Assembly: GCA_039621445.1 (NCBI GenBank)
Contig: CP154954.1
Location: 33,581,455-33,645,454 of the forward strand
Length of the DNA stretch: 64,000 nt
DNA from: Euglena gracilis
Taxonomy: Eukaryota
Direction: 5' to 3'
Below are positions 28,315 through 64,000 of this stretch, one piece after another (the stretch's first letter is position 1; each line of letters begins with the position of its first letter). The translations under genes and the position numbers were made by a program. The notes beneath the pieces are model-generated. The model did not search any database. It saw only the letters and a list, made by a program, of their open reading frames with translations, and was not told the origin of the DNA.

Positions 28315-28327
28315 NNNNNNNNNNNNN
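28315..28327. other. Assembly gap (13 N)
   Basis: N run. Confidence 1.
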
Positions 28328-31300: not shown

Positions 31301-31636
31301 ATCATTGATGTGGCTGCCTGAACACTAGGAGAAATTCCCAAGCATCGTGGCTGGGCGTCTCCATTTAAGTGGAAAGCAACTGGGGAAAAACATGCACCCC
31401 AGAAACCAGATTCAAAATGTTTGTCTTGGCTGTTTTTCCATAAGCCAAACTCTGTAAACTGAAAATCCAGATTTAAACTTCTGGCTGATTACGCATCTGC
31501 CTCCAACACCAGATCACCATGAAAAACGTATTACAAAACAATCACAAAGCCACAAGCAAACCACAAAAACATACTGATCTGTAAAGTGCTGTGCGGTGCC
31601 AGTCAGTGGTTAGACCTGTGAAAAGACCTCAAAAAA

Positions 31637-32983
31637 TCACCACCACCAGTGATGCGGTGGAAACCACCACCAGCTGTTCCAGGGATTTAAATGCCAGTCC
31701 CAACCCCACCAATCTTGAAACCAACTTGGTCTCAAAAACTGAAAGTCGTTCCAACTGCTTTTGGCAGGCCTCCAGAATTTTTTTGTCTGTCTGAATTTTC
31801 TTGGCTGTGCGGCAAAATCTGAGGAAGATTTCTCAGAAGACACTGATGACGGCTGCAAATTTGTGACATGTCCAGAAGTCAGGTTCACAGGCACAAAATT
31901 TTCTGGACTTGGAAATTTTTCACTGGGCTGTAACTTTTCAGTCATTTCAAACATTTTCAGCCGTTCCTCCAGAATCTTTTCTTCACTCTCCAGCCGTTTT
32001 GACAGAGCCTCGCCCTTCTCACACAGGGACTGGATGCTTTCAGAAAAACGGTGTTCAATTTCACTGCAAGTTCGTGTCAAAAGGGCATGAAAACCATCTG
32101 CCAAATTTCTCAGACGGGTTTCAATTTCAGCCATCCGTCCCTCCAAGTGGCTGGACTCACTTTGGCTGGGCACTTCCTCCAGTTTCGTCAGCCTCTCGTT
32201 CAGAGAAAAAGTGTTTGAAAACAATTCTGTGATACCTGCCTCAACTTTTTGCCACCACTCATCCGAAGGGTCATAAAAAGTTTCAGGTTTTGCGACCTCT
32301 GAAGTTTCCACACTGTCTGATTTGACACTCAGCTGTCCGGATTCAGATTCACACCGCACAACTCTCATTTGCAAAACATTTGGACAATGGTCAAACTATT
32401 TTTGTTTAACTTCAGGTTCTCCTGGCAGTGAACTTGTTGGGCTTACCCCTGACGGTTTACAAGATTGACATGGAGAAGATGAGTCAGGGCCATGAGAATG
32501 TCCAATGGCTGCTTCACATCTGAGTTTCCAAAACTCCCTCTGAGACGCCAGAAGTTCAGCCTCCCTTTTTCTTTGTTCCTCTGTTTGGGTATCACTGAAT
32601 TCAATTCCCAACAATTTGAATTGGTCACTGTCAGTGAAGCCACCTCTGCGTACCATGTTGGGGGTCTTGGGGGACCCTGCTCGCCCGGGGGGGCTGCTGC
32701 TTTCGCTGGGGCCACAATTTCCCTTTTCTGGCCCTGGTGGGCTCAGGCCAGGGCCTTTGGCAAGTTGGGCCCCGTTCTCAAATAAATCCACAGGCGGTAA
32801 TGGGGGTGAGGTGTGCCCCCCCGACCCAGGTCCCCCTGTCTCCCCGCGTAGGATCGTTTTTAGCCTCCACTGTTTTGCCTTTTCAAACATTTGGATCAAA
32901 AGGTGAGCAAGGACAAAACCAACCCACCTACTTAGGATCAAACAGCAGAGCACAACAAACCTGGGGCTTGAGAGGGTGGGCAA
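31637..32983 (-). pseudogene. Tandem-unit coiled-coil ORF, interrupted copy
   Basis: ORFs 32396-32983 and 31637-32374, with a stop and a small deletion relative to 13541-14941. Confidence 0.6.
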
Positions 32984-35900
32984 GTACCTTTGAATTCAGG
33001 TGTTGAGTGGGAGAAAGAATGTGGAAATGAATGAATTGATTTCCTTGGATAATTCAATTGTCCTTTTTGATCTTTCAATTTTCAATTGACTTTTGTGCTC
33101 TTGTGATTCTCAATTCGAATTCTCAAATTCTTGCTGGAATTTGCTGGTGTTCCAATTCCACTCGCGTGGCGGTTGACTTGCTTTGGATATTCCTACTGTG
33201 GTTTTTGGGAATTTTCTGGGAAATTTTTGGCTGCCGACGCCAGCGGCAGCCGACACCCCCTCCCTTGCGACGTTAGTCGGACCCGTTTTTCTGCCCCCCC
33301 CCCCGAACAAAACCGGGGAGAGTGAAAATGATTTTTTTTGTGGGGGGCGAAAATTCTGTTTTTTTTTGAAACGGGTCCTGTCGCTTTTTTTTTTGAAAAT
33401 CTGTGTTACGAGTCGGACCCCCGCCCCAGCCATAATATCGGGCACCTTGGGGGACTCTGAAAAATGAGGTCTACGGGGGAAGCCCCCCACCCCTTTCCTC
33501 CGACAAGCATGGGGAAACGGGTCTTTGAACACAAATCTGAAAAACGATTCCAAACGAAACAAACTCTGGGCACTCCACCCCAAGGCCTAAGTCCCACGCT
33601 GCCCCCCTTGGTGAAAATCCTTTTTGGCAGCTTTCATTGTGTGAGACTTCATTTGTCGATTTCTTTAAAAAAAATCAGGGACTTTGGCCAACAGCGCCTC
33701 AGAAAATGACTTGTGTGGGGAAAAGAAAAAGAGAAACCTAGGCATTCCTTTCCAATTCGGGACAGTTGGGTAAGAAAAAGGCAAATGGTAAGCAAAAGTG
33801 AAAAGTGAGAGGGTAAGCGGTCATATGGAATAGTGTACAATGGGTGTGCGGGTTCGTGTGCGTGTGCGGTTGTGTGTTTTGGGTTTGTACACGCTCACTT
33901 CCTTGTCATTCATTCCAACCGAAAATGACTGGGCTGACTTTTTTGAACGCAAAGAGAACAGGGCTTCACATTGGCCCACAGCCACTATATCACAGGGCTT
34001 TAGTGCCCACGTGGCTGGTTTTTTTTTTCATTGGCCCACAACAGGGCCTATGGACGGAGGAGGGGTCATCTGCGGTCCAGGGTCCCCCCCCCCGAGTTCG
34101 GATGCCTCCAAGCTGTGTTCCATGAAAAAATGCCTTTGACCAATATCCATTATCCAAACCGAATCAAAAAACTGAGTTCTAAAGCTCCAACTCGTTTTGT
34201 CGTCCACCAGAAAAATTATTAAAATCCCAGGCTTTTTCCAACTCTTTGTGTAAAAATCCTCCAGGAACAAAAATCATCAAAAAATCAAAAATCTGGGTCC
34301 AACACAGGGCCTACAAAAGCCCTCAACAAAATCCAATCCAGAATTCCAACCTCTGACATCCAGCTGAGAACAACCAACCCAAACAAAAGCATCCAGCAGC
34401 ATACCGTTGTTGAGGGGCCAGGCCATCCGGCCCAGCTGTGGGTCCAACCGATTCACTGGAGCCGTAAAACCAATAAATCCGGCTTGCCAATTTAAATTCA
34501 CTGCCCCCCCCCCCCCAATCACACGGGGCAATGGGGGTCAAATGACATGGCAAACTCAAAAATACTGAAAATTCAAATCCAATTTTCTCAGCCAAAGCGA
34601 TTTTTCGCTGCCCCCCCCCCCCAGTCACATGGGGCCATGGAGGTCAATCTGGCTTCAGCTTCCAAACAAAAAATCACAAACCTGGGCCGTAATATCCAAA
34701 CCGACTGAAATCTCACACATGTCAAAGGACGGGCCTTCACAATGTCGCCCCCCCCCCCACCGTCAACCAATGTGGGGAGGGCCATGGGTTAAAAATTCCT
34801 GGCTGCAAAATCAGAATCCCCATTCGACAAATAAAATGGGGAAAATGGAAATTTCATCAAACCCCGTCACATCTGGGGTGTGACCAAAACAATCACGGTC
34901 ACAATATGATGCATTCCTGTCCCCACCCAAACGTCTCACAGGGGTATCCAATTCTGAGTCAAAAAATTCCAACCGTAAAGCCAAAACTGATTTTGATCCA
35001 CCACACCAACAAAAACAGGGCTCAACACAGCCCCCCCCCCCCCAGCTGCACGAGGAGGGAGAAAAAATGGCTCCAAACCACATGCAAAATCCTGAGACCC
35101 AAAAACATGAAAAATCTGATTCAGCGCTGTGGGAGCAGCCAACCTGGGCCTGGACCTGGGCTTTGGCCGTGCATCGGGCCACTGCCCACTGCAGGCTCTT
35201 GAGGTCGTTAAGCTTCTCTCCCCAGCACTTCAGTAAAATAAATGTACCCACCATTCTGGGATTCCATAAACGATCCACAATTGTAATCATGCCAATCGTA
35301 ATCATGTGATTCAATTGCTTGGGTCCCATTGATGTCATTGAAATCGGTTCTCATCTCATCGAAATGTTCATCCCAGTCTTTGAAGTCAATTCTTTGCAAA
35401 CTGTTGAAGTCTTTGAATTCAATAAATTCAGTCAAAATCCTTGATAACTTGACTGCTTTGCTCCTTCATTTCGTGATTGCTGCTTGAACCTGCATGACAA
35501 GGCACACACACACGCACAAAATTCACCACTGGCAACACAGAAGGCAGATTTCTGAATTTTCTCACTGAACCGAACCTGAAAATGCCACTGAACTCTGAAC
35601 CAAAACGGCACTTAAAATCTGTATCTTGATCCATCAAATGGGTCACACGAAAACTGTATAAGCAAGTCTCAAACTGCAAAAATTACCATTGGGAGTTTTG
35701 CATTGTGAGGCGTCCCCCACTTCTGAGTTTTTCTCCCTCAAGCAAACTCCACAGCCGAAAAAATGCCGCAGAAAGTGTTACCCACAGATCAACAGATTTT
35801 TCACTGAAAAACTGAACTGAATGCCACTGATGATGCCACTGCTGGGCCCAAAAATGAATTTTCCTCAGGGGTGTCTTTTCCTCCTGGGGTTAATCCACCT

Positions 35901-36724
35901 TGGTTCCCAAGACTGAAAAACTGAAAACTGTTTCCTGAGCCCTTAGATGGGTGGCCACAGGGGTGTTTATTCCTGGCCTGGGTCTAGCCCCACCCTCGGA
36001 ACCCCTCTTTGCGCGCTTTCCAAAAACCTTTTTGGTTCGAGTGGTCCATTAGAGGTCTCCCCTGCCTCAGGATTTGGCAAAAACCCAGATAAAACCTGCC
36101 ACAGGACTGCTGGGCTGCCACACTCGAAAACCACAATAAAACTGGACTGAAAAATACCAAAAAACTGTGCCGATTCTCCAACATATGTCCCTGTCCGGGG
36201 GTAAGTTTCTCTCTGGAAAAACTGTCCCGTGACAAAAGGGACCAGCAAAAACACAAACCAAAATTCCAACCTGAAATGTCTGATTTGTCCCCGTCGGGGA
36301 TGGTGACACATGTCAATGCCGTGCCCCACCCCAAATGACATTTGGGACAAGAACCGAAAACTGAAAACTCTGAAACTGAAACTGAAAGATCATTGATCTG
36401 GCTGCCTGAACACTAGGAGAAATTCCCAAGCATCGTGGCTGGGCGTCTCCATTTAAGTGGAAAGCAACTGGGGAAAAACATGCACCCCAGAAACCAGATT
36501 CAAAATGTTTGTCTTGGCTGTTTTTCCATAAGCCAAACTCTGTAAACTGAAAATCCAGATTTAAACTTCTGGCTGATTACGCATCTGCCTCCAACACCAG
36601 ATCACCATGAAAAACGTATCACAAAACAATCACAAAGCCACAAGCAAACCACAAAAACATACTGATCTGTAAAGTGCTGTGCGGTGCCAGTCAGTGGTTA
36701 GACCTGTGAAAAGACCTCAAAAAA

Positions 36725-38029
36725 TCACCACCACCAGTGATGCGGTGGAAACCACCACCAGCTGTTCCAGGGATTTAAATGACAGTCCCAACCCCACCAA
36801 TCTTGAAACCAACTTGGTCTCAAAAACGGAAAGTCGTTCCAACTGCTTTTGGCAGGCCTCCAGAATTTTTTTGTCTGTCTTAATTTTCTTGGCTGTGCGG
36901 CAAAATCTGAGGAAGATTTCTCAGAAGACACTGATGACGGCTGCAAATTTGTGACATGTCCAGAAGTCAGGTTCGCAGGCACAAAATTTTCTGGACTTGG
37001 AAATTTTTCACTGGGCTGTAACTTTTCAGTGATTTCAAACATTTTCAGCCGTTCCTCCAGAATCTTTTCTTCACTCTCCAGCCGTTTTGACAGAGCCTCG
37101 CTCTTCTCACACAGGGACTGGATGCTTTCAGAAAAACGGTGTTCAATTTCACTGCAAGTTCGTGTCAAAAGGTCATGAAAACCATCTGCCAAATTTCTCA
37201 GACGGGTTTCAATTTCAGCCATCCGTCCCTCCAAGTGGCTGGACTCACTTTGGCTGGGCACTTCCTCCAGTTTCGTCAGCCTCTCGTTCAGGGAAAAAGT
37301 GTTTGAAAACAATTCTGTGATACCTGCCTCAACTTTTTGCCACCACTCATCCGAAGGGTCATAAAAAGTTTCAGGTTTTGTGACCTCTGAAGTTTCCACA
37401 CTGTCTGATTTGACACTCAGCTGTCCAGATTCAGATTCACACCGCACAACTCTCATTTGCAAAACATTTGGACAAGGGTCAAAACTTTCTTGTTTAACTT
37501 CAGGTTCTCCTGGCAGTGAGCTTGTTGGGCTTACCCCTGACGGTTTACAAGATTGACATGGAGAAGATGAGTCAGGGCCATGAGAATGTCCAATGGCTGC
37601 TTCACATCTGAGTTTCCAAAACTCCCTCTGAGACGCCAGAAGTTCGGCCTCCCTTTTTCTTTGTTCCTCTGTTTGGGTATCACTGAATTCAATTCCCAAC
37701 AATTTGAATTGGTCACTGTATTCCTTGAATTCTTTGTCATCAACAGAATCTAAAAATTCTTCACTGACAGAGTCAGTGAAGCCACCTCTGCGTACCATGT
37801 TGGGGGTCTTGGGGGACCCTGCTCGCCCGGGGGGGCTGCTGCTTTCGCTGGGGCCACAATTTCCCTTTTCTGGCCCTGGTGGGCTCAGGCCAGGGCCTTT
37901 GGCTAGTTGGGCACCGTTTTCAAATAAATCCACAGGCGGTAATGGGGGTGAGGTGTGCACCCCCGACCCAGGTCCCCCTGTCTCCCCGCGTAGGATCGTT
38001 TTTAGCCTCCACTGTTTTGACCTTTTCAA
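36725..38029 (-). CDS. Tandem-unit coiled-coil hypothetical protein (434 aa)
   Basis: Open frame nearly identical to 13541-14941. Confidence 0.55.
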   Translation of the reverse strand: MKRSKQWRLKTILRGETGGPGSGVHTSPPLPPVDLFENGAQLAKGPGLSPPGPEKGNCGPSESSSPPGRAGSPKTPNMVRRGGFTDSVSEEFLDSVDDKEFKEYSDQFKLLGIEFSDTQTEEQRKREAELLASQREFWKLRCEAAIGHSHGPDSSSPCQSCKPSGVSPTSSLPGEPEVKQESFDPCPNVLQMRVVRCESESGQLSVKSDSVETSEVTKPETFYDPSDEWWQKVEAGITELFSNTFSLNERLTKLEEVPSQSESSHLEGRMAEIETRLRNLADGFHDLLTRTCSEIEHRFSESIQSLCEKSEALSKRLESEEKILEERLKMFEITEKLQPSEKFPSPENFVPANLTSGHVTNLQPSSVSSEKSSSDFAAQPRKLRQTKKFWRPAKSSWNDFPFLRPSWFQDWWGWDCHLNPWNSWWWFPPHHWWW

Positions 38030-38464
38030 ACATTTGGATCAAAAGGTGAACAAGGACAAAACCAACCCACCTACTTAGGATCAAACAGCAGAGCACAACA
38101 AACCTGGGGCTTGAGAGGGTGGGCAAGTACCTTTGAATTCAGGTGTTGAGTGGGAGAAAGAATGTGGAAGTGAATGCCTTGATTTCCTTGGATAATTGAA
38201 TTGTCCTTTTTGATCTTTCAATTTTCAATTGACTTTTGTGCTCTTGTGATTCTCAATTCGAATTCTCAAATTCTTGCTGGAATTTGCTGGTGTTCCAATT
38301 CCACTCGCGTGGCGGTTGACTTGCTTTGGATATTCCTACTGGGGTTTTTGGGAATTTTCTGGGAAATTTTTGGCTGCCGACGCCAGCGGCAGCCGACAAC
38401 TCTCACCCGCACAGGACTTCGGCCGAACCCAGCACACCAGAGTAATCCAAAAAAAAAATAAGGC

Positions 38465-41400
38465 GGCAAGGCGCAAGGGCGCAAACCAGAAGGGCCCGGC
38501 GAGGAGGTCCGAGGGAAACGGAGTATTGCGTCCCTGAGGAGCTCCTTCCACCGCACCTGTTTACCATCCGGGAACGGTGGTACTTCGCCGGGCAGCGCAT
38601 TGAGGCTTACTGGGCGTCCAGCGGGATGCAACTCCTGCAGTTTGACCCAGACAGCCGGATCGGAAGAGCGGTGGGTTCCTTCGAACAAGAGAACTTGCAG
38701 GGCCTTCGCAGGGGCCCCTTCCCCCACCAACGTGCGGGCACGGCGGAGAACAGCGGCCGGTATGGCGGCGGGCTCGGTGCGTGCTCTTTTGGCTGCCCGC
38801 GTCTCGATGGACGCTGGTGGGAGGCGGGTGGCGCTTCTCAGCGCTGTCATCAGCGTTCCATTGTCCCCTTGCCGGAACAGTTGGACGCGCCGCCTGATCG
38901 CGGTGGAGATGTCCTCATCGGCCTCACGCCCCGCACTTTGGACTGTCCGAAGCACCAGTTTGGGGAAGGCGAGGGTGGCGAACAGGCTGTCCATGGTTGG
39001 CCTGCTGACGTATTCCTCTATGACATTGGAGAGGGTCTCGGACACGTCACGTTGGTTGGCCGCAGGCACATGAAGGACCGTGTTTGCGCGGCAGAGGAAG
39101 ACCTCCTGGAGGTTGGCCGGCTGGGGCGGGATGGTGATTCCGGGCGGGCCACCGTGACGGAGGTCAGAGTTCTTTCCGCTTTGGTCGACCACCACAGCCG
39201 CGGGTGTGTCGTCAGCTGGGTGTGCTAAATCGTTTTGTGCTGTCACGAGGCGCCTCCGCGGACACGACAACCGACGTGGCTGACCTCTTTCTGCCTCCCG
39301 GCGGACCTGGGTTGCTTTCAATGTCCCCGCAGGACAAGAGGCTCCATCGGCCCGTCTTGGTGGGCGCTCGGCAATAGGGGAGTTGTCCACCAGGTTGATC
39401 ATAATGTGGTCCACGGTGCACCGGGGAGTCACGGCAGGTAAGCGCGATTCCCCTTCGGCGATTGGTTGGGAAAGCCCTCCTACACACCGGCGCCGCCAAG
39501 GACTAAGTGGGCCGGCTGAGTCCCCTGCAGGTAGGGGTTGGGGTCCCCAATGCGTCCGAATCCGTCGCCATGGCAACCCAGAGTCTGGTCCGGAAACTGG
39601 ATCCGCAGGGGAACTGGGCCATTCTTCAGGTGGACCTGAAGAACGCCTTCAACACACCGGACAGAAATGTCCTTCTACAAGAAGCGCAAACGCGCACTCC
39701 AGCGCTTTTCAACTACCTGCGCTTCGCCTACGGCCAGCCGGCACCGTTGTTCAGCGGAGGACGCGTGCTCCACTCCACGAGAGGCACACACCAGCGTTGC
39801 CCCCTGGGACCCATCGGCTTTGCAGTGGGCCTCCACACCATCAGCGAGACCATCAGCCAGCAAGCAGAGTTGCTCTGGTCCTCATGGTACCTGGATGATG
39901 GGGTGCTTGTCGGTGAGCCCTGGGCTTTGCAGAAGTGCCTCGAGTTCCTGCGGACCGAAGGCGCACGCAACGGGGTCCAATTGAACCCGGCGAAATGCGT
40001 CGTATGGGGTCCGGCTGCTGGCGCACTCCCTGACCGCGAGAAGGTTCAAGTTGTACCCTGGGTCGAGGGCTCTGGGATCACTGTCCTGGGCTGCCCCGTC
40101 GACTTCCCAACCACGGCAGGGCACACAGTGGCAGCATGGACGGAGGCAACAACCAAGCTGGAACAAGCTGCGGACCTAATCACCTCGGTCACTGACCCCC
40201 AGCTGGCGCACCACATCCTGAGGTCTTGACTGGACGGCTGCAGAGTTAACCACCTCCTGCGCGCCTCTGATCCCTACCAGGCGCAGGGTGAAGTGATTCG
40301 GTGCAGTGAGACGATCTTCGGTGCCTTTGAGGACATCATCGGCCAAGCCCTCAGCACAGACCACAGCCTGCAGGCCTCGCTACCGCTGTCACAAGGTGGG
40401 TGTGGCCTTCGTATTCCCGCCTCCCACCAAGCAGCAGCCCGTACCGCCGCCCTGTGCCAGTTCTACACACATGGACATAAGCGGGTCGCATGTCCAAGCT
40501 ACGCGGCCGACCCGGACGACCGGCTGTGCCAGCAAGCCGCCAGTGACGTTGGCTCCGTCCTCGGCACCCGTCACCCTGAGAGCAACCGGCTGACAGCATC
40601 AGCAGCCTTCGCCTCTGCGTCGGCAAATGACACCTCGCAGAAATGGTGGCAGACCCAACTATCCAAGGCCCATGTGGACGCCCTCATCGCCACGTGGTCT
40701 GCAAGGGACCAGACACGTCTTATGGAACAGCTCAACGGTATCGGCCACGGCTGGATGGCAGCAGCCCCCAATGAGGCTCTGCACACGGTGATTGAGCCCG
40801 CCGACTACTGCCTTGGCCTGAAGTGGTGGCTTGGGCTGCCCCTGGCTGACACGCCAACCACGTGCGCGGGGTGCCATTCTGTGGCAGACATCCACGGGGA
40901 TCACGACATGTGCTGCATTCGGAACAACTTTGCAAGCCGACACAACGCCGTTCAGGAAGCCTTATTCAACCTCCTGTCCGCGAACGGCCAGAGTGTCCAA
41001 CGCGAGGTGCCAGTACCAAACCAGCCAGACGCCTCCCTGCGACCAGCGGACCTGTTGCTGGCAACGTGGCAAGACGGGAAACCGACCGCGGTAGACATCG
41101 CGGTTGCACACGGCTGGCAGTCTGCTGAGAGGACAGCGTCCAGGGAACGATGGAGAACCTTCCTCAGACGGAAGGAGACCGCAAAGCACGCCAAGTACTA
41201 CATATTGTGCCGAAACGGGGGCTGGTCCTTTGCCACGCTGGCATTTGGGACATGGGGAGGCCTGGGCCCGGAGAGCGCCAAGCTGCTGACAAGACTGATC
41301 GAACGATCGACCTCCTGGGATCAAGGCGACGTGCGTTTGACGCGGCAGGCTGAGAGCTACCAGAGCTTGGCATGGGCCCTGTTCAAGCAGATCACTCAGT

Positions 41401-45266: not shown

Positions 45267-46171
45267 TAGGTGGAAACCCCACGCTATTACGGCTGGAATT
45301 GTGCTGAGCCCTGGGGCAAAATTTGACGGCATTACGGCCTTGGGCCCTGGAGCCACATCTGTGAAACACTTTTCCGTGCCCGTTTTGGCTTGAGACGTGT
45401 TGAGCCCTGGGGCCAAATTTGACAGCATCATGGCTGAAGCCTTGGGCCCTGGGGCCACATCTGTGAAAAACTTTTCTGTGCCAGTTTTGGCTTGAAATGT
45501 GTTGGCTGAAGCCTTGGGCCCTGGGGCAACATCTCTGAAAAACTTTTCTGTGCCAGATTTAGTTGGAAAAGTGTTGAGCCCTGTGGCAAAATTTGACAGC
45601 ATCATGGCAAAAGCCTTGGGCCCTGGGGCCACATCTGTGAAAAACTTTTCTGTGCCAGTTTTGGCTTGAAATGTGTTGAGCCTTGGGGCAAAATTGGACA
45701 GCATCATGGCTGAGGCCTTGGTCCCTGGGGCAAGATCTCTGAAAAATTTTCTGTGCCAGATTTGGTTTGAAATGTGTTGAGCCCTGGGGCAGAATCTGGG
45801 AGCATCATGGCAAAAGTCTGGGGCCCTGGGACCACCTCTCTGAAATGTTTAGAAGGCCCTGGGGCCATAGTGCAAATTGGAACAGTGATCGCTATGTTAC
45901 AGCACAGATGGTACAGCAAAGTACAGTGAAACAGGGATAGTACTTCCAGCCAACCCAGGGACCACTGGACCAGGGCCTGTAATTCCCTGGGGGGCATGAG
46001 GGTTCTTGCGCTGGCTGAAGGCATCACCGATGCCCAAGCCATTGCATGGGGCTTCATTTGACATGTCAGTTGAGCTTTTCTGCTCCAGAGAGATAATTGT
46101 GTACCCTTTGATGAAACCTTTACTCAGAACGTCGTCGTAAAAAGTCGTCGAAAAGTCGTAGGAATTCGTCG

Positions 46172-53500: not shown

Positions 53501-56244
53501 ATCTGTTCCGTTGCGGTTCTCCGAAGAACGTGAAACTCCCGATTGACGTGAAAAGGCCGAGGAACCCGATCCCCGTGAGGAGGTCGAGCCCCTAGGGCTT
53601 CCAATAGGCTTTCACGCATCGGGATTCGGGCATTCCCGAGACATGTGACCAGATTTGTTGCACAAAAAGCACAGTTTATCCGTGCCTTGGTCCGAAGAAC
53701 GCTGATTCCGCGTGTTCGGTCCCGTGGTGGGTGATCTCGGTGACATGGGTGATTTTTGCGACGCATTAACCGCACCCGCAGGGATTCCCGCGGTGGGATG
53801 CGTTTGGAAAGCGGACTGTATTTGTCCCAAAACTTGTGTGAGCTTGAGCTGCTTTGACACATAATTCCAACGTTGGGCAAGAGTCATCTCATGCCCTGCC
53901 AACTCCTCGCGATGGATATCCTTCACGAGGGATGGTGTAAAATGCAACGAAACCGCATCGAATTGTTCGCGCACTTGCTTCTCGCTAAGTTCATCAACTT
54001 CGGAAGCAAGTGCTAACCATTTGGCATACCAAAGGTCAATGTATTTCTATTTGCGATCCGATGGCGCGGATTGCCGCCATTTCTTCTCCAGGGTAATCCT
54101 GGTGACCAGACTCGAGTTGGTTGAAGCGTATTGCTCAACCAGGTCATCGAATGATATGCCATTACGTATCACCAAATTGCGTGCGCGTTCTCGATGAATT
54201 CCATCTTGCCTACTTCGGGATTCGGGTACTGGGTGGGTCCCTTTAGTGCCCAGTAGTACTCCCAATCCCGAAAAAATTGTCTCCATGTGGTTGGATCCCC
54301 GTCTCATTGGGGCTTCACCTTATTCGCGATTGCGATGGTGCCCGTGAAGTCTCTCTGAGTAACCCGTTGACCGTCGGTGGTATTCCAGGGGTTTGGGTCC
54401 GGGTAATTCTTAACACCAAACGCGTTTCGCGGATTTTCTGCTCCATGTGTACCCCGTGCAGGATTTCCCGCACCAAGTGTAGCGGTGGCAGGATTTTCCT
54501 GCGGGAATTGCGAAAAATGTGGTGAATTTCTCCCGTTGGGGAGGGTTTCCCGCCGAAAACCCGATGGGTGATCTGGTAATCCAGGACCCGTTGGTGGTTG
54601 GTATGATCGCGAATGCGACACATGACCAATACCAGGTGAGGGGTGTTGGCTCATTCCTCGTACAAGGTTGGAATGTTGAATTTCTTGGTGGAGACTCGAA
54701 TTTTCGAGTGGTGGATCAATTTCCTCATAGGAAATGTCCTGTGAAAAGTGGGTTTGTGGTGTAGGCAAATGCAAAGATGGTACAATTTCGTTTTCGCGGG
54801 TGGTTGTACCAAATTCGCGGTGGATGTAGGGATTCCTACTCCAGAAATGGTAGTTTGAGAACGCGATTCCGGGACATTTGGAATACCAACCGCAGCGCTT
54901 ACCGCGGTGGGTGGTGTCACAACCGGTACCGGAGTGGACATTTTATCCAAACTCGCGGACAAGACAGGCACCGTTTCTTCCAAATGTTCCACCAACTGGA
55001 GTTGGCCGCAAATACGGTCAACCTCAGTCTCCAAATGCCTAATGCGTTTGCGGTAACGGGAAAAATCGTCCAAGTGTGGTAACTTGCCAGAAACCAAGTG
55101 TAAATCTTGGACAAGTTGTCCTTGGGACTCCTCCACATTCCGGAGTTGACCCGCAAGCGCTTTTACTGCATTTCAGACAATGTGCAAATGGTGGGATGAC
55201 GTGGTGGGGGCTTCCACGGTGGTGCGCGAATTTTCCGCATTGGTGGACATTGGTGGTGGACATTGGTGGTGGACATTGGTGGTCCGCAACGCATTGGTGG
55301 ACATGCAAAATCTGCTTGCTCAGCGGGTGATCCGCTGGGAGTTGAACGAGAATTCGGTAAACATCACCAGGGGTGAGGTTATCCCGCAAATCATCCCCAT
55401 AGTCCTCCACAATGGAAACGGTACCAGAGATTTCCGGTCCACCAGACGCATATCTGGATTCCAAGGCAATGCAGGGAAGACTGCAGTTTCCGCGGGTAAT
55501 CCCGGCAATGCGTGAAAGGGTGTGGGGGGTTGAAATTGAGGGGGGGTTGGAAAAAACACGGTGTTTCCACCGAGTTGCACTCAAAAAGGCCCACCGGTGC
55601 TTCCACCGAGGATCTTTTGGGTGTGAACAGAGCAAAGGGCAAATACCCCTCACTTTGTTCATGGGTAACCAGGTGTAAGGGTGCAAGGGGTTCATCCCCT
55701 CGCCGCATCAATGATGGGTGAACCGGGATGGAGGAAGGCATTTTGCCACCTACATCCCGCACAATCAATGACAATGATGATGAAGAGGGTTCATTACCCC
55801 CTTGCAACAATGAAGGCGTTTTCGCCTTGCGACAATAACAATTGGTGCAATGTGTCTTCCTGTTGCTTGGGGGGTCGTGAATTGGAACTTGTTTCATTCG
55901 AACCGTTCCAATCCCCACAATATTCATCAAGGTTGGTCAATGAACTCATCAACAAGTCATAATCAAATTTGTTGTTGGGAGGTTGTGCTCTGCATCTTTT
56001 GAGATGGGTAAAAAGGCAAAAACCCAAAAATTCACACAAATAAGCAGTGAAACAAGGACCAGAAAGGTTGTATCGGCGAATACCGAACAGAGCCTTTTGA
56101 GACCTGTATCCCTGCTTAAAGGTTGGCTAGGGGCCAGGAACAGCACTTTCACCGTGTTCCACGGCTCAGTACGATCCTCACCATCCTCACCAGAGTTTCT
56201 CTGTGTGGAACGTCTGTGTCTCGGATCTAGGATCGTTGCCTAAA

Positions 56245-56256: not shown

Positions 56257-56860
56257 TGTACGTCCAAGGCCTTCCCTTTGACCCCTTTTGTCCCGGAAAA
56301 GCCTGTTTTGCTTTCTCCTGGTGCGCACCTACTTAGGTGAGTAAAAATCCTTGGAGTAACAAAACCCCTTTTCCCAATTCCCCTGTGCTAAGGCAGAGCA
56401 CAAAGCAAGTCGCTGTGAAAGGACTTTCCTTCACAGTCGTGTCCAGTCCTTTCAGAGGTTTATCCTCTTACTTCAAAACAGTCAGAATGTGAAGAATAGA
56501 ATACCACCTGTGGGGAAAAGAGATCACGCGAGCACGTGTGGTACGTGTCGCTAATTCCCATAGGATCTGCCACGATCGTCAGGCTGTGTTCATCACAGCC
56601 GTCAGATTGTGACGGATCCAGACTCCGCAGGTTTCCTACAGAGCTGGGATCGTGCCTGGTACACAGTGTCTCCCCATTTTTCTTCCATGGAATTATTCCA
56701 TGGAGTTATTTTCTTATAGAATATATATATGGAGTTATTTTCTTATAGAATATATATTTTCTTATAGAATTATTCCATGGAATTATTCCATTCTTCCATG
56801 GAGTTATTTTCTGGGTAAGATGTTTCTGGGGGGTCTGGGTTGGGGGTGTTGGACATTGCA
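56257..56860 (-). repeat. Putative 604-bp 5' LTR with an internal AT-rich palindromic minisatellite (56683-56810)
   Basis: Termini TGTACGTCCAA...TTGGACATTGCA form an imperfect inverted repeat next to the PBS. No second copy in the window. Confidence 0.6.
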
Positions 56861-56914
56861 CCCCTAGGTCCCCTAGGGCTTGGGCCCTTGTAAAAGGAAT
56901 TTTTTTCTGGGGAT

Positions 56915-59900
56915 GTGCAGGATGTTGTTGCTCTGCTTCCAGGGGATCACCCCCTTGTGAGGCAGTTCAACCATGTGCAACAATGCGTTGCGGATTGTGC
57001 AACCGCACTGAACAAAGTGCTCCAGTTCGATGAGGACAACCAAAAACATGTCTTCACCAAGCTGGAATTCTGCTGGAATTACTTGCAGGAAGTTGGCAAA
57101 TATTGCCAGAGGAATTTCGAAAGTGCGGGTATTGACCTTGCAAACTTTCGGGAAACCTTTGACAAAATGTGCCAACAACTCCCGCAACACTTCCGGCAAA
57201 TTAGTGAATGCATGCATGAAGCGGAAACGCGGAATGACTCCAAGTTTCTGCACTTGCATGACTCACTACAACGGTTATCGGGACAAATGGAGTCCTGTTC
57301 ATCCGCGTTGTTGCATTTGCAACAACAGTTGCATGCACGAGATTCCTTGTCTGCAACATCCAGTAGTGGTGGATTTGTGTCTATGGACCATTTCACCACA
57401 TTGTCCGCAACTTTCCATGAATCGCAACACCGCATTATGCAGTTGTGCGATGAAACGGAAAAGTTTCGGCAATTCCAGTCACAAGCCAACGAGAATTTTG
57501 CTCCCCACACGTATGTGCGGCAGTTGGACGAACGACTTTCCCGTTTGGAGCAGAAAACCTGCTATTGTGACGCGAATCGGGTTGGATTATCCAATCTGAG
57601 CGCGAAAGTCGCGGAAATGGCACAACGGCAGGATTCCCTGCAGTTGCAGTTGCAATCCGACATTGGCGGGATTAACTCGGCCATTGCGGGTTTGCAACAA
57701 AGCTATTCCGCACTTTCCCACCGAGTTCCGGACATTAGCGGCATTCAGACTGCTATTGGGGAACTCCAGACCCGGTATGCATCGGTGTCTACCAAAGTAA
57801 CGGAAATGCAGTCTCTGCCTGCAGGTTCCAGTTCTCGGATGACCGAGAACCCTGAATTCAAGGCATTTTATGACGAAATGCTCACTAACAATCAGGAAAC
57901 CTTGCAAGATTTCTGCAACAGCCTATTACGGCTTGAGGAATCGGTGAATCGGAATGCCCGATACACGCAAAGTGAGATTACCAGGTTGGATGAGCAAATT
58001 TCCGCGTTGTTGGATAACCCACAACCTGGAAATTTGCCCATGGGTACCACAACCGTGTTGTCGGATAACCCTGCACCGGTTGCACCCACCACCACACCAA
58101 CCAAGGTGACATCACCTGTGCAGATTCTCTCAAATGCTGTAAAAGCATTAATGGGACAACTCCAATTATTGGATAAGTCTCACGGGAAACTTGTCCAAGA
58201 TGTTACCGGAATTTCCGAAAGGATTCCGCACTTGGATGACTTTTCCCGTTACCGTAAGCGTATTCGCGCTTTGGAGGATGAAGTTGACCGTATTTGCGGC
58301 CAACTCCAACTCGTTGAGCATTTGGAGCAAAGTGTGCATGACTTGTCTGTGGGTTTGGATAATGTGTCCAACCAACAGCGGGTTTCACACCGCAATTCGG
58401 CAGTATGCATTGCCGAAGATGCGCCAAATGTTCCAGAGTCGCGTTTTCATAACCCGGCTCTGGGTGCACATGCACCACCACCACCCGTGTCCCGAGTGTC
58501 ACAATCCGCGATTCCGCGAATTGTGCCACCATTGGCCTTGTCCACAACCCAAACCCAGTTTTCGGATGAATCTCCCATTACGGGAACCGAATTCGCGGAA
58601 AACACGGCGATTCCGCCAAGTCTCCACCAAGAAATCCATCATTCCATGCTTGTGCGTGGAATGAGCCAAACCCGTACACCGGGAGTGGGTCACATGTTGC
58701 ATGCGCGACATACCCCCACACCGGAGAGTCTCCCTATTACGGGTGACCAACAGGGTTTGCGACCGGATTTCCGGTACCAGGATTCACCTTCACCAGAAAT
58801 TTCGCGATTCCGACAAGAATCCGGAAAGGATACGCTTGGTGCTCGAGCGTACCCGGGCCCGAATCCACGGAATACCACCGAGGGCCAACGGGTTTTTCAG
58901 AAAGACTTCAAGGGTACCATCGCAATCGCGAATAAGGTGAAACCCCAGTGGAATGGTGATCCAACCACATGGAGACAGTTTTTCCGGGACTGGGAGTACT
59001 ACCTGGCATTGAAAGGGCCAACCCAGGACACAAACCCGGAGGTGATCAAGATGGAATTCATCGATTGCCTCCCTAGGGATGAGAAGGAGCGCGCGCGACA
59101 ACTCGTCATTCGCTACCGCGTTTCCTTTGATGACCTGGTGGAGCAATACGCTTCCACCAGTTCAAGTTTGGTCGCTAGGATTACCCTGGAGACCAAGTGG
59201 CGGCAATGCGCCCCACCCGATCGCAAATGGAAGTCCATTGACCTTTGGTATGCCAAATGGTTGGGACTTGCCGCTGAAGTGGATGAACTCAGTGAAAAGC
59301 AAATGCGCGAACAGTTTGACGCTGTTCTCATGCATTTCACGCCTAGCCTCATCAAGGATATCCACCGTGAGGAGTTGGCGGGTAATGCAATGACTCTTGA
59401 CCAACGCTGGAACTACGTTTCCAAGCAATTGAAGCTATCACAGCTTCTTGGTCAGATTCAATCCGCGTATACCGCACACCCAACCGCTGGATTACCGGCT
59501 GGTTCGGTAAACGCATTGCAAAAAACACCGGTTTCACCCACTTCACCCACCACGGGATCGAAAACGCGATACCCGCGTTCTTCGGACCACGCCACGGATA
59601 AAGTGTGCTTTTTGTGCAACAAATCGGGACATATGTCTCGGGAATGTCCTAATCCTGAAGCGTGTAAGCGTATTCAGAGTCCGCGAGGCTCGACCTCATC
59701 ACGAGGTTCGGGTTCCTCCGCGTTTTCACGCCAATCGGGCAATTCACGGTCATCGGGTCCCCGTTCCGGTGGTATTAGCCCCCGGATCCCGTTCCGCGAT
59801 GAGCGGAAACACGGTACCCCTCGGGGTAGGTCACCTGGTGCCCCGGCCAAGAAGCGTGATTCTCATCGCGAGACATCGCGATCGCGTTCGCGAAGCGGAT

Positions 59901-60337
59901 CATCTTCTTCGCGATCCTCATCGGGAAAACCCCGATACACCGGTCATGGTCGACGGGATACCCGGTCACCACGACGGTTTGACGGGAAATCGGGAAACCG
60001 ATCCCCCCGTTACCCAGACTCGCGACACAAATCTCGGTGTTCGCTTTGTGGATTGAGTGATCACCACTCATCCAAATGTCCGCGTTCTCGTTCTCCCCGC
60101 CCTGGCCAACGTCATCGCGGTATGAATCGCGGTGACAAGGGTCACTCCTCCAACCGCCATAAAGTCGGTTTCAAGATATCTTGTTTAGAGGATGACACCC
60201 CGGCTTCGGGCAGGGAGGGGGATGAGACCACGGATACCGATTTCGACGAGGCCCGCATGGCGGTGCGCACGTTGAAATCTGTTTATACCTCTAAAAGGCC
60301 CATAGCCGGCTATACGGCCGGTTCGGACCTGGAGTAG
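56915..60337 (+). CDS. gag: Gag-like protein: long coiled coil, capsid-like region, two CCHC knuckles, RS-rich tail; probably 5'-truncated
   Basis: 1140-aa ORF with CFLCNKSGHMSREC and CSLCGLSDHHSSKC; followed in frame by protease and RT. Confidence 0.88.
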   Translation: MQDVVALLPGDHPLVRQFNHVQQCVADCATALNKVLQFDEDNQKHVFTKLEFCWNYLQEVGKYCQRNFESAGIDLANFRETFDKMCQQLPQHFRQISECMHEAETRNDSKFLHLHDSLQRLSGQMESCSSALLHLQQQLHARDSLSATSSSGGFVSMDHFTTLSATFHESQHRIMQLCDETEKFRQFQSQANENFAPHTYVRQLDERLSRLEQKTCYCDANRVGLSNLSAKVAEMAQRQDSLQLQLQSDIGGINSAIAGLQQSYSALSHRVPDISGIQTAIGELQTRYASVSTKVTEMQSLPAGSSSRMTENPEFKAFYDEMLTNNQETLQDFCNSLLRLEESVNRNARYTQSEITRLDEQISALLDNPQPGNLPMGTTTVLSDNPAPVAPTTTPTKVTSPVQILSNAVKALMGQLQLLDKSHGKLVQDVTGISERIPHLDDFSRYRKRIRALEDEVDRICGQLQLVEHLEQSVHDLSVGLDNVSNQQRVSHRNSAVCIAEDAPNVPESRFHNPALGAHAPPPPVSRVSQSAIPRIVPPLALSTTQTQFSDESPITGTEFAENTAIPPSLHQEIHHSMLVRGMSQTRTPGVGHMLHARHTPTPESLPITGDQQGLRPDFRYQDSPSPEISRFRQESGKDTLGARAYPGPNPRNTTEGQRVFQKDFKGTIAIANKVKPQWNGDPTTWRQFFRDWEYYLALKGPTQDTNPEVIKMEFIDCLPRDEKERARQLVIRYRVSFDDLVEQYASTSSSLVARITLETKWRQCAPPDRKWKSIDLWYAKWLGLAAEVDELSEKQMREQFDAVLMHFTPSLIKDIHREELAGNAMTLDQRWNYVSKQLKLSQLLGQIQSAYTAHPTAGLPAGSVNALQKTPVSPTSPTTGSKTRYPRSSDHATDKVCFLCNKSGHMSRECPNPEACKRIQSPRGSTSSRGSGSSAFSRQSGNSRSSGPRSGGISPRIPFRDERKHGTPRGRSPGAPAKKRDSHRETSRSRSRSGSSSSRSSSGKPRYTGHGRRDTRSPRRFDGKSGNRSPRYPDSRHKSRCSLCGLSDHHSSKCPRSRSPRPGQRHRGMNRGDKGHSSNRHKVGFKISCLEDDTPASGREGDETTDTDFDEARMAVRTLKSVYTSKRPIAGYTAGSDLE

Positions 60338-60420
60338 GGGAGCCCGAGGTCCGAGGGCACGGACCTCTGGGCTGATGAACAGATGGAGGTAGGACCTGAT
60401 CAACCCTGCCCCCCCTGCCC
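60335..60420 (+). promoter_or_regulatory. Candidate gag-pol UAG readthrough signal (stem-loop, possible pseudoknot)
   Basis: TAG-GGG-AGCCC GAGGTCCG agggca CGGACCTC t GGGCT; loop GGGCA is complementary to TGCCC at 60407 and 60416. Confidence 0.55.
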
Positions 60421-63140
60421 ATCTGCCTTTCTGGTCGGTACCCGGAAAATTTTCGGGTCCCCCACCCCCCACTCCAACTTTCCGCTCGGAATGTTGTGCA
60501 AAGTAGGAAAGGGTTCATGGGAAAGCTGGCAAGAAAACGTATTTTCACCAGACCCTTCACTTTGCTTACCCCCCATGGAACTTTTGGTCCAAGCGGAAAT
60601 CAAAATCCAAAATTTTTGTACAAAAGTCAAAATTCTCATTGACACTGGTTGTCGCATTGCACTACTTTTTCGGTTCGGGTTGATACCAACCCCCCTCTTG
60701 GTGAAAGACAAGAAGCCGATCAAAATTACGACGGCTGACAACACCCCCATGTGCGGTGGTGACTTGGGATGCTTTTTGGACATTGTCCTACGCCTCGTCC
60801 CCAAGCACCACTCACACACCCCCCAACCGCAAAATTTTCCGGATACCTGGGGATATGAATCCGGAATCCATGGTTCTGACGTAATTCTGGGATACCCCTT
60901 TTGACGTCAGCACCGGCTGGTAGTGGATTGCCACTCCCACGGTTTGCGCACATCACCATTCTCCTCATTGCCCCCCAAACCCTCATCACCTGTGGCGTCA
61001 ACCGCGATAGCCACCAATTTTTCCACACCGTTTTCGAAAACTTTTACCCCGTTACCAACCACACCAACCAACGTTTTCCACACCGGGTGTACCGAGAAAG
61101 TTCACCCCCTGCCCGTTGACACACCAACTTCCGTTCCCCGTGAGGCAGGGCAAGCAAGTAGCGGTACCCCCCTCGTTCCACTGGGTTACAAGACGAAAGC
61201 CCAAAGGCCTGAAGTAATTACGGTGTCGAGTAGTCGCCCAGCTGCACTAATACCCCGTTTTCCACCAGATGTATCGCTTTCAGATACATCTGTACACCCC
61301 CCAGCAGCTACAACAGCGCATCCCAACTTTTACACACACCCCCACCAGACCAACATGCGCGACCAGGACCACTACTCCGACACTTCCTTCCAATGTGTGC
61401 ACTGTAGGAGAATTTCCGCCCAGCCAGATTTCGATTGTGGATGTTTAGTCCAAACACCAACACTAATCCCGATTTCGCGGACCCATACACTTGGTTGCGG
61501 ATCGCAATGCGCGACTGTACATCAAGTGCTCCAACAACGAGGTATTGCCTTGTTGTTTGGGACCGCGAAATCCGTGTCACACACCTCCCCCACCTCCATC
61601 TGGCATGATATGGACTGGGTATGTACCCATCCAACCCATCAACCCTTGGGAATGCCCCTTGGGAGTGTGGATGACACACCCTTGACCTATGTTTGCGGAT
61701 CCTTGAATTGCGTTACCGCTCTTCAACCCGCGAATCAGGTCGACACATACGGGATGCGTGTATGGAATGCATTTAATTTTGGTCAATACCGTATTTTGGA
61801 GCAATGGTTCTCCAAAATCGCGGTTTTGGCTGATTCCTTCGATTTGTCATTGGAAATTGATGCGTTTTCATCAAAAGCGCATGCGCGCTTGTCGCGATAT
61901 TGGTCGCGACATACCAACGCGTTTCTAAAATTTTGGGGTGATACGGTGCTATGGATGCACCCTCCCCCAAAACTTATCCCGGATGTGGTGGAGAAAATCC
62001 TCCGCGATGAAGCGCGCGGAGCTCTCCTCATACCCGTCAATCCGAATGCGGATTGGTTTCACCAACTATCCCATGTGTGTTTTCATTGGTGGGATTTACC
62101 CGCTGATGTACCACTATTTGAGGATTTTTGTGGTATATTATTACCACCTGTTAAATAAATCATTTTTCGCGTTTGTTTCTTTGACGCATTCGGAATATCC
62201 GATTTGCGTGTGCCAAGATACCTTGGTACCAATGGGGATGCCACACCCTCAACGCAGATTTCTGCGGTCATTGAGAGTGCGGACCAACACCCCAAGTCTG
62301 CTGACTATTGTTCGCGAATTACTCGCGAATTTCATGGTGTACTGGATAATCCAGTTTACGCCTGCGACATCGACCCCGCGATTCGCGGTCCGTTCGGTGT
62401 ATGCAAAATCGAGCTCAAGGATGGCGCTAAACCCATGCACCGGAAATTTTTCCGTTGTTCGGGTGAACGCGAACAGGCTCTCAACGAGATGATTGAGAAG
62501 CTCATCCAGCGGAAGTGGATTATCCCTTCCAAGAGCGAGTGGACATCACAAGCTTTTGTGGTGCCCAAACCCGCTGACCAGTCTGGTCAGAAGAAGTGGA
62601 GACTAGTGCTGGATTACCGGTACCTGAACTCCCAAACGAAGGATGACCCCTTCCCGTTACCGCTGATCGAGGATTTGATCACAAAACAATCGGATAACTG
62701 GTTGTGGTCAATCTTTGATCTGGAAGACGGTTTCCATCAGATGCATTTGCATCCTGATTCGCAACCGTACACGGCATTCGTGACATCCAAGGGTGTGTAC
62801 CAATGGACGGTACTCCCCATGGGTGTTAAGAATGGCCCAGCCATGTTTCAACGCATGATCCAGTGGGTTTTGCGCGATTTACCGTTTGCTCTGGTGTACA
62901 TCGATGATGTACTGGTGGGAACCCAACCGCCATCCGCGAAATCGGGCGAGGATATCCTCGACCCGCATTATCGCGATGTGCGCGCGGTATTATCCGCGTT
63001 CCAAAAGCATGTGCTTTTTGTGAAGGGTTCCAAAATGCACCTGTTTCGCAAGATTATTAAGTTTTGCGGACACATCCTGAGCAACGGGCAGCGTAAAGCC
63101 GCACCCAGTAAGATGGAGGCCATTAAGAAATGGACTCCTG
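60338..63140 (+). pseudogene. pol: Ty3/Gypsy pol: aspartic protease - spacer - Dam-like methyltransferase - RT; two in-frame stops; RNase H and integrase missing
   Basis: ILIDTG...VILGYPF (protease); WRLVLDYRYLN, FDLEDGFHQ, LPMGVKNGPAMFQ, YIDD (RT). ORFs 60383, 60923 and 62204 share the gag frame. Confidence 0.9.
61780..62200 (+). other. Dam/DIRS-type DNA N6-adenine methyltransferase-like domain
   Basis: IDAFSS..HAR..RYWS..TNAF..FW...LWMHPPPKLIPDVVEKI..DEARGALLIP...ADWF..L. Confidence 0.72.
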
Positions 63141-63167
63141 AGGATCATCCTCTCGGACTTTGAGCAT

Positions 63168-64000
63168 ATGCTCAGGTTCAAGGAGGAGCTGGAGGACGAA
63201 GGCTGGCGAATGCAGCATGATTACCATGTTGCAGGAAACCGCCCCGTCACTCCTCCACAAGCAGTCATCGATGTGGTATTACGCCACACCGAGAACCGAG
63301 TCAGACTATTCCATTACGGAATAGATCTGTACGCCTTCGAAGGTGAAGGTGGCAGACCCTTGCTGGATGCCCAGCCGGGTTTCTGGGAACTCTGGTTTTG
63401 GCTGGGATACCCCTGCCAGAACTGGGGTCTCTTCAGCGATTCCACTGGTCGCAGTTACCTGCACCAGTTGGGTTTTCGGGACCAGCGTTTGTTGGCCCGA
63501 AGGCTGAAGGCAGTCTTCGACTGTATTCATACAGTCGGACCCCTCGGCGTGCAGTGGGAATTCTACCCACTACACCCCGACATCGAACGCCTGATCGAGG
63601 TGTTGTGGTGCAACAACCTTCAGGTATGGCTGGTGAGCCGTTACGGCTCCACCTTCCGCGTTAGGCCTGTTTCCCTGGCTTACCCGCAGAGGTATGACCT
63701 CTGTTGTAAGTACTGCCGGCAGGAATTTCCTGTCGACTTCTGGGGATTCGGCGTGCGCGGAAGTCCTCCACCGCCTCGGGATAACCCGGGCCTGGAGATG
63801 GGACGCCGCATGCTTATGCATGTGTGCCGCGACGCCCCGGATGTCCAGGGCAAAAGTCGCCGCGTCCACAAGCAGCGTATTTTTATGCTGCAGCAGTTCT
63901 GGTGGCGAGCCTGGACCACCTATGTCATGGAGGTGTATATACATCTCCGTGACCCCCAGGACGATAGGCCTGGTATGGAAAGCCTGCCACCGGATTACGG
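63168..64000 (+). CDS. Unknown ORF running off the window end (MLRFKEELEDEGWRMQHDYH...)
   Basis: Manual translation shows no stop from 63141 to 64000; not RNase H- or integrase-like. Confidence 0.45.
   Translation, partial: MLRFKEELEDEGWRMQHDYHVAGNRPVTPPQAVIDVVLRHTENRVRLFHYGIDLYAFEGEGGRPLLDAQPGFWELWFWLGYPCQNWGLFSDSTGRSYLHQLGFRDQRLLARRLKAVFDCIHTVGPLGVQWEFYPLHPDIERLIEVLWCNNLQVWLVSRYGSTFRVRPVSLAYPQRYDLCCKYCRQEFPVDFWGFGVRGSPPPPRDNPGLEMGRRMLMHVCRDAPDVQGKSRRVHKQRIFMLQQFWWRAWTTYVMEVYIHLRDPQDDRPGMESLPPDY

Follow-up and report, generated by a model that had tools for sequence, protein, structure and literature searches.

The window considered here, by which we mean the whole 64-kb stretch of DNA that was analyzed and in whose coordinates all positions are given, contains a retrotransposon copy in which a single + strand reading frame spans 56894-63160 and is broken by three in-frame stops. 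The order of parts in this common frame is a gag with a CCHC zinc knuckle, a protease with a DTG motif, a Dam-like domain and a reverse transcriptase (RT; Pfam family RVT_1) with its YIDD box. We consider it very probable that the domain and the architecture of the element are as just described. With good confidence we interpret the locus as one copy, defective and truncated at its 3' end, of a long terminal repeat (LTR) retrotransposon of the Ty3/Gypsy type with very high copy number, a member of the DAM-LTR class that has retained a methyltransferase (MT) domain of probably non-canonical character. The class was named by Fernandez-Moreno et al. (bioRxiv 10.64898/2026.05.21.726589, May 2026), according to whom no adenine methyltransferase domain had been reported before in LTR elements other than DIRS. 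The closest relative found, P0002, is a protein of 1208 amino acids (aa) that is 71% identical over the MT region. The features of the locus, each with the evidence behind it, are as follows (X1 is one of the sequencing runs discussed below; ORF, open reading frame).

53507-55368, - strand: the "paralog", a diverged fragment in inverted orientation that contains only gag and belongs to a related family (tblastn with gag)
56500-56694, + strand: upstream stretch of the same high-copy repeat, possibly a leader or part of an LTR (summed X1 contig depth about 4.7e5 in the bin 56500-56750)
56695-56906, + strand: short stretch rich in tandem repeats that displaces the canonical gag start (local direct and inverted repeats at 56678-56812)
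56907-60334, + strand: gag-like ORF (ORF 56894-60337) with a CCHC zinc knuckle at 59606-59647 (Pfam zf-CCHC)
60335-60337, 60902-60904 and 62156-62158, + strand: the in-frame stops TAG, TGA and TAA (translation)
60335-60373, + strand: gag-pol boundary TAG and a strong stem-loop at 60338-60373 (sequence and RNA fold)
60338-60901, + strand: aspartic protease region, with DTG at 60641-60649 within LIDTGC and ILGYPF at 60884-60901 (motif and BLASTP to relatives)
61394-61444, + strand: Cys4 motif, C-x2-C-x10-C-x-C, in the spacer between protease and MT domain (common to relatives)
61745-62155, + strand: Dam-like methyltransferase-fold domain of about 137 aa (PF05869, 462 relatives, AlphaFold2 model)
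61856-61873 and 61958-61969, + strand: motif-I-like IDAFSS and, at the motif IV position, HPPP (translation)
62156-62158, + strand: TAA between MT domain and RT, a defect of the window copy; P0002 has a sense codon
62159-63143, + strand: linker and reverse transcriptase (RVT_1 about 62564-63079, YIDD 62897-62908), cut in the thumb (Pfam)
63148-64000, + strand: unrelated high-copy repeat next to the cut RT; it may have inserted here, or the copy may simply end at this point

The zinc knuckle of the gag-like ORF gives a zf-CCHC match of E 5.8e-5 and 23.4 bits, exceeding the cut-off of 20.8, and the RVT_1 match has an E value of 4.6e-28. Directly 3' of the TAG that closes the gag-like ORF the stem-loop folds with -46.5 kcal/mol (z -3.59), and none of 200 shuffles folds as well; the TAG is possibly genuine, and together with the stem-loop it resembles a retroviral-type stop-codon read-through signal. 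The region that follows is assigned to a protease because of its DTG motif and its homology to relatives, with 46% identity to residues 64-186 of P0007 (BLASTP, E 1e-28) and 30% identity to residues 88-189 of P0016 (E 1e-8), regions that bear weak Peptidase_A3B and RVP matches in these two proteins. Both have a sense codon at the place where the TGA at 60902-60904 interrupts a conserved protease motif in the window. The Cys4 motif, approximately 100 aa upstream of the MT domain, recurs in P0002, P0006, P0007, P0011, P0012 and P0033, six of the 33 relatives whose sequence extends 120 residues or more upstream of the MT domain. A second structure model places it in small hairpins (pLDDT ∼65-70) followed by a disordered linker to the MT domain; the motif is seemingly restricted to the subclade of the window and is possibly a zinc knuckle.

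The Dam-like domain and the type of its element

Translated in the frame shared by gag, protease and RT, the Dam-like block reads ...LEIDAFSSKAHARLSRYWSRHTNAFLKFWGDTVLWMHPPPKLIPDVVEKILRDEARGALLIPVNPNADWF... and stands at the end of the third segment of that frame, 60905-62155. An earlier sequence-only reading of this DNA had picked out a motif string in the gag-protease-RT frame, and the string is indeed present in the + strand translation. The extent which it gave, 61780-62200, was nearly right, its end overshooting the TAA by 45 nucleotides (nt) and the folded domain running from about 61745 to 62155. The three in-frame stops went unremarked in that reading.

PF05869 (Dam) is the sole Pfam match of the block, with an E value of 7.3e-5 (22.9 bits) for the 417-aa ORF and of 1.1e-5 (25.6 bits) for a 156-aa piece, and the alignment spans profile positions 22-105 of 169. 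Relatives are numerous: when a library of 1.84 billion representatives was searched with phmmer, 462 proteins reached E<=1e-3 and 83 of them E<=1e-10, and PF05869 is matched at E<=0.01 by 52 of the 62 members of the family that were aligned, at best with 2e-13. Three word-index protein searches returned only P0002, P0153 and P0010. Look-ups in the Atlas yielded no usable host taxon, the nearest clusters bearing the labels Porifera, Mucoromycota, Mollusca and Streptophyta on the strength of a few members each. The Pfam match foreseen in the sequence-only reading was thus obtained, as the only one, but for the window itself it lies under the cut-off, whereas members of the family reach 2e-13.

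In order to obtain a view of the fold an AlphaFold2 model was built on the family alignment of 62 members, with pLDDT 91.0, pTM 0.81 and a folded span of model residues 20-156. About 40 of the 50 structure neighbors listed by the VIA wide search, which does not depend on Foldseek, are methyltransferases by title. The N6-adenine enzymes among those listed include CAPAM (Z 9.1), T4 Dam (Z 8.0, root-mean-square deviation 2.7 over 97 residues), METTL5 (Z 7.5), EcoDam (Z 7.3), M.BseCI (Z 6.8) and M.TaqI (Z 6.2); further neighbors listed are the Pyrococcus RNA methyltransferase PH1948 (Z 8.2), DpnM and CamA. The modeling that was foreseen in the sequence-only reading led to a confident model with methyltransferase neighbors.

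Several results count against this identification and must be set beside it. The window's PF05869 scores of 25.6 and 22.9 bits do not reach the 28.1 bits of the curated cut-off, no PDB sequence was matched in a profile search, VIA rates Z values of 7-9 as "middling", and Foldseek against the PDB produced no match at E<=0.001, the best relevant row being 6iry, a cap-specific adenosine methyltransferase (prob 0.75, TMq 0.44). Because the VIA values are middling and the Foldseek result is not significant, the modeled fold, a compact, class-I methyltransferase-like (Rossmann-like) fold of the type that binds S-adenosylmethionine (SAM), is rated as moderately rather than strongly supported; since fold support is only moderate, the family-wide sequence evidence is the main support for domain identity. 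Were the resemblance to methyltransferases due to chance, and the block a lineage-specific spacer, the low Pfam score of the window and the Foldseek outcome would be accounted for, but not the 462 homologues, the 52 of 62 members that match PF05869 or a confident model with consistently methyltransferase neighbors. Chance resemblance is refuted by the relatives, by the PF05869 matches of the family and by the structure neighbors, and we give it virtually no credence.

Likeness to T4 Dam, EcoDam and PF05869 is seen in the Pfam match and in the fold neighbors. There are differences, in that the window domain is much shorter (∼137 aa) and covers about half of the PF05869 profile, has no evident target-recognition domain, and carries His in place of the catalytic Asn/Asp.

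The type of element to which the domain belongs emerges from its relatives. P0002 is an uninterrupted protein with Dam, RVT_1, RT_RNaseH and Integrase_H2C2, and its last residues are the beginning of a DDE core. A Pfam scan of 20 long relatives gave the following architectures.

Dam upstream of RVT_1: 7 of 20 (P0002, P0012, P0019, P0024, P0035, P0051, P0087)
Dam upstream of RVT_1, with Integrase_H2C2: 4 of those 7 (P0002, P0019, P0035, which also has rve, and P0087)
Weak protease match upstream of Dam, no RT: 3 of 20 (P0007, P0016, P0042)
rve, Dam, RVT_2, a Copia-like order: 1 of 20 (P0106)
RT, RNase H, MT, the DIRS order: 1 of 20 (P0101)
Dam only: 7 of 20 (P0004, P0006, P0011, P0018, P0020, P0033, P0038)
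No family: 1 of 20 (P0054)

No match to Phage_integrase, the tyrosine recombinase family, was found in any of the 20 long relatives scanned. In P0106 the MT domain stands between integrase core and RT, which is a layout like that of Ty1/Copia. Four distant DIRS-type loci, L001-L004, were found on short metagenome contigs with 31-37% identity to the domain, and two of these (L002 and L004) encode RT and RNase H followed by MT and Phage_integrase; a metagenome scan with P0002 found no relative.

The element is assigned to Ty3/Gypsy because its MT domain lies ahead of the RT in a frame with a CCHC-bearing gag and a DTG protease, and because P0002 continues with RNase H and an H2C2 integrase. Judged from these sequences, the lineage of the window is of the integrase-bearing Ty3/Gypsy type and not DIRS, with an MT domain that is common to DIRS. 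The sequence-only reading had proposed a Dam-like adenine methyltransferase related to that of DIRS, placed between protease and RT in an element with a Gypsy-type RT. The relationship is borne out by the PF05869 match, the modeled fold and the homology to L002 and L004, the placement by the DTG upstream and the YIDD-bearing RT downstream, and the lineage by P0002, which has an integrase and not a tyrosine recombinase. Presence of the domain in other family members is likewise established, with 462 relatives and with P0002 and six further long relatives that have Dam before RVT_1. The same reading had called the position of the domain atypical, which applies relative to DIRS only: on the evidence of the scan, the place between protease and RT is the regular one in Gypsy-type relatives, with Dam before RVT_1 in 7 of 20 and the DIRS order in 1 of 20.

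Other observations make this assignment less secure. RNase H and integrase are not in the window, the copy being cut at 63143, so that the Gypsy assignment rests on relatives; no direct repeat or LTR pair flanking the copy is found within the 64-kb window, the 3' end of the element lying outside it; and no Pfam protease family is matched in the window copy even at E 10. It is thus necessary to ask whether an ordinary DIRS-like element with a tyrosine recombinase has been misread as Gypsy. The MT family is common to DIRS (L002 and L004, and P0101 with RT, RNase H and MT), the window is without the 3' part of the element, and the RTs of DIRS elements are related to those of Gypsy. Yet a DTG protease lies upstream, and DIRS elements have a tyrosine recombinase and no protease; the MT domain precedes the RT rather than following RNase H; in P0002 the RNase H is followed by Integrase_H2C2 and by the beginning of a DDE core; and the count for Phage_integrase is zero of 20. 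The protease, the domain order and the integrase of P0002 largely refute a DIRS-like identity, to which we attach very little probability. The comparison with the MT domain of DIRS1-type elements is one of homology, with D-A-F-A-S, D-A-F and W-x-N-P-P-F blocks in common, and of different settings: that of DIRS follows RT and RNase H in an element with a tyrosine recombinase, while that of the window lies between protease and RT and its relatives have a DDE-type integrase.

A second possibility is that the arrangement is a chimera, produced either by the insertion of a piece of DIRS into a Gypsy copy or by faulty assembly. Nested and truncated elements abound in the window, whose repeats form a dense mosaic, and the preprint warns of nested insertions in one species (10.64898/2026.05.21.726589). 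Set against this, the domain is in frame with protease and RT, the same junctions occur without stops in the independent P0002, the identical order is found in 7 of 20 diverse long relatives, and a 981-nt contig of an independent RNA library bridges 61502-62482. A chimera is about as improbable as a misread DIRS element.

Motif IV and the role of the domain

The motif (D/N)PP(Y/F/W) is a hallmark of amino-methyltransferases, and its residues contact and stack the target adenine. The window departs from it, with HPPP directly after model strand 87-90; P0010 also has HPPP and P0002 has HPPL. A motif alignment of 157 domain rows, comprising the window and 156 domain matches from 151 proteins, includes 145 rows with a residue at the window's His column, and these are distributed as N 99, H 26, C 12 and F 4, with one row each for Y, L, A and S. 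The most frequent form of motif IV is NPPF, in 53 rows. That HPPP stands in place of NPPF/Y, as the sequence-only reading had it, is thus confirmed by the alignment.

A maximum-likelihood tree built from 55 near-complete domains joins the window to P0002 with support 100/97. Both of these have His, and their sister P0003 (99/96) carries N. The three fall within a clade of 13 rows (97/84) of which only 3 have an aromatic fourth residue. The tree also bears on a second recurrent departure from the Asn-Pro-Pro rule, namely Cys in place of Asn (CPPF), which is seen in 12 of the 145 rows (P0026, P0036, P0037, P0049, P0050, P0059 and others); the six Cys-bearing rows on the tree form one group (81/84).

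The remainder of the domain is well preserved. The window retains D58, F60, W72, F79, W83, P93, K103, P116 and W123, which are invariant or near-invariant columns of the family alignment, and when compared with P0002 it is 85.5% identical over the RT, 76.2% over the MT core, where there is no indel, and 50.5% over the spacer. Because the MT core is better conserved than the spacer, and because the other near-invariant residues are kept, the domain appears to be still constrained, and what the sequences suggest is an apparent, lineage-specific loss of the canonical catalytic pair in such a domain.

According to the available text of the preprint (10.64898/2026.05.21.726589), Asn-Pro-Pro is kept in almost all DAMs, five DAM-LTR lineages are recognized, and at least four transfers from DIRS to Ty3/Gypsy-like elements are inferred. 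The window lineage resembles DAM-LTRs, as described there, in its Ty3/Gypsy-type pol with a DIRS-derived, prokaryote-like adenine methyltransferase (PF05869-like) domain, in the patchy but locally very abundant occurrence of the family, and in the fold, since the compact five-stranded sheet with flanking helices of the preprint matches the window model. It differs in having His-Pro-Pro without the aromatic residue. The Gypsy-DNMT3 and SymbioLINE-DNMT elements cited in the same text also have a retroelement pol fused to a DNA-modification domain; theirs belongs to the unrelated C5-cytosine enzyme family and occupies another position in pol.

What the domain does is best approached from the order of pol, which is protease, Cys4 spacer, Dam-like MT-fold domain and RT, with RNase H and integrase added in intact relatives. 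The domain would be kept for a function in the life cycle of the element, and it would travel with the RT in the particle and act on or bind replication intermediates or new insertions. It could serve as a SAM or nucleic-acid binder, or as an adaptor, for example towards a host system for N6-methyladenine (6mA), as is proposed for the class: the preprint, in its available text, suggests that the domain marks RNA-DNA intermediates or recruits the host AMT1 (10.64898/2026.05.21.726589). Our leading, if tentative, candidate for this lineage is a binder or adaptor; an enzyme with altered chemistry seems a less probable choice, and a canonical N6-adenine methyltransferase the least probable of the three. 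From the motif a binder or adaptor, or else an enzyme of changed chemistry, is more likely than the canonical enzyme.

The opposing case is that the domain is still an active adenine methyltransferase, in which the amino group of the target would be contacted by His and the place of the stacking aromatic taken by Pro or an aliphatic residue, with new copies being marked by 6mA; the substrate would perhaps differ, for example an RNA:DNA hybrid or single-stranded cDNA during reverse transcription. Conservation speaks for this, with an MT core at 76% and no indels beside a spacer at 50%, the other near-invariant residues retained, and a 13-row subclade that is well conserved though 10 of its 13 members have a non-aromatic fourth residue. 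His at the motif IV column moreover occurs in 26 of 145 rows, with at least three separate origins on the tree, and such recurrence could mean that His is compatible with catalysis. The preprint reports, for three species, that DAM-LTR insertions carry more 6mA than do other LTR elements, and it argues that catalytic potential is kept in the class despite negative assays in E. coli (10.64898/2026.05.21.726589). Those assays themselves tell against activity, DAM-TE proteins with the normal motif having given no gain of 6mA in E. coli (10.64898/2026.05.21.726589), and in the window both key positions of motif IV are altered. The self-methylation of cDNA or RNA that the sequence-only reading thought possible is likewise putative. 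We regard an active adenine methyltransferase as unlikely, though worth serious consideration, and continue, tentatively, to favor a non-canonical domain.

The copy, its abundance and its surroundings

The window copy itself is defective and 3'-truncated, and presumably nothing functional can be made from it. It is dead because the gag start is displaced, a TGA lies in the protease motif, a TAA stands between MT domain and RT, and the RT is cut at 63143. Contigs of all four runs (X1, X15, X16 and X18) leave the window sequence after 63143, and P0002 goes on into the rest of the RT. At the 5' side X1 contigs jump from 56694 to 56830-56836, and loose ends of X15 and X18 before 56907 start with an ATG-led sequence that is not present in the window. 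Loose ends of the same two runs before 63148 show a different upstream sequence in other copies of the abutting repeat. That repeat, at 63148-64000, has a summed depth of about 7e5 in X1 and an open frame, 63081-63998, of at least 306 aa without a Pfam family.

The element family is very high-copy and extremely abundant. A total of 63,293 X1 contigs match the 7.5 kb stretch, with a summed depth near 1e6; X1, X16 and X18 each cover all 30 bins of the stretch and X15 covers 29 of them; and parts of it are present in 20 of the 24 runs listed. There are 427 letter differences between the contigs and the window stretch. As much as 34% of the sampled words are present in one leaf-litter metatranscriptome, and a gapless 981-nt contig from a leaf-litter metatranscriptome lies over 61502-62482; DNA may be present in such libraries. 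Because RNA libraries can contain DNA, the contig over the domain is not counted as transcription.

The only paralog within the 64-kb window is the inverted gag fragment at 53507-55368 (- strand), which has 51-79% protein identity to the gag (tblastn) and 70-77% nucleotide identity, the inverted repeats I1-I4 that it forms being 74-81% complementary. No protease, MT or RT match was found in it by tblastn. The sequence-only reading had credited this paralog with an LTR and a primer binding site, and neither is confirmed: it is a gag-only fragment without a flanking direct repeat, and a tRNA-iMet-type primer binding site motif occurs in the window at chance level, with 2 matches where 3.4 are expected.

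Beyond the element the window contains tandem units of approximately 5.1 kb (spacings 5086-5302 nt) at 4243-15130 and 28395-38315, some 23 kb apart and 98-100% identical, and a repeat with a 102-nt period at 22449-22971 and 45329-45851, duplicated at the same ∼23 kb distance. Because the two copies of the tandem array are 98-100% identical, a recent segmental duplication is indicated. A run of 13 N (an assembly gap) at 28315-28327 falls inside one of the 5.1-kb repeat arrays. Further ORFs with RVT_1 are present at 672-3452 (+), 16268-16987 (+), 19252-21063 (-) and 39507-40226 (+); they have no LTR-type domains and, from their sequence, look like long interspersed nuclear elements (LINEs). Those at 16268 and 39507 have identical opening residues and both lie inside the duplicated region. 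No host gene was recognized among the ten large window ORFs scanned, and Rfam and tRNA scans of the window gave no match.

Implications for DAM-LTR elements

The structural inference of the sequence-only reading is correct and was reached independently; its implied novelty is smaller now that the class has appeared, under the name DAM-LTR, in May 2026. A full-text literature search gave one work that describes the class and two other papers that, in the text available, concern only DIRS MT domains or unrelated transposon methyltransferases. The words "protease" and "histidine" are absent from the preprint text, in which the protease-proximal position and the Cys4 motif are not mentioned, and its supplements may already contain the window family. 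What may be new is the His-for-Asn sublineage, the conserved upstream Cys4 motif and possibly an unsampled host; the class itself is in print. The more far-reaching proposal, that the window represents a DAM-LTR sublineage absent from the 2026 preprint, possibly from a terrestrial host outside its five lineages, to which the leaf-litter metatranscriptome would point, and with a conserved pseudo-enzyme or a changed chemistry, is doubtful at present.

As a single locus the window copy is the dead remnant of an abundant repeat, and its interest lies in the lineage that it represents. Retrotransposons with a DNA-modification domain of their own show how mobile elements engage host epigenetic systems, and in the newly described DAM-LTR class the biochemical activity of the domain is so far putative. 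If the domain of this lineage is a pseudo-enzyme, the selected role of the domain in LTR elements need not be methyl transfer, and binding of SAM or nucleic acid or recruitment of host 6mA would be possible; this would also bear on the negative heterologous assays of the preprint. A lineage in which both hallmark catalytic residues are lost, and in which the domain nevertheless stays under apparent constraint, amounts to a natural experiment. Should the lineage still associate with 6mA, the domain is probably an adaptor and not an enzyme, and should it be without such association, the contrast with Asn-bearing relatives would directly test the proposed function.

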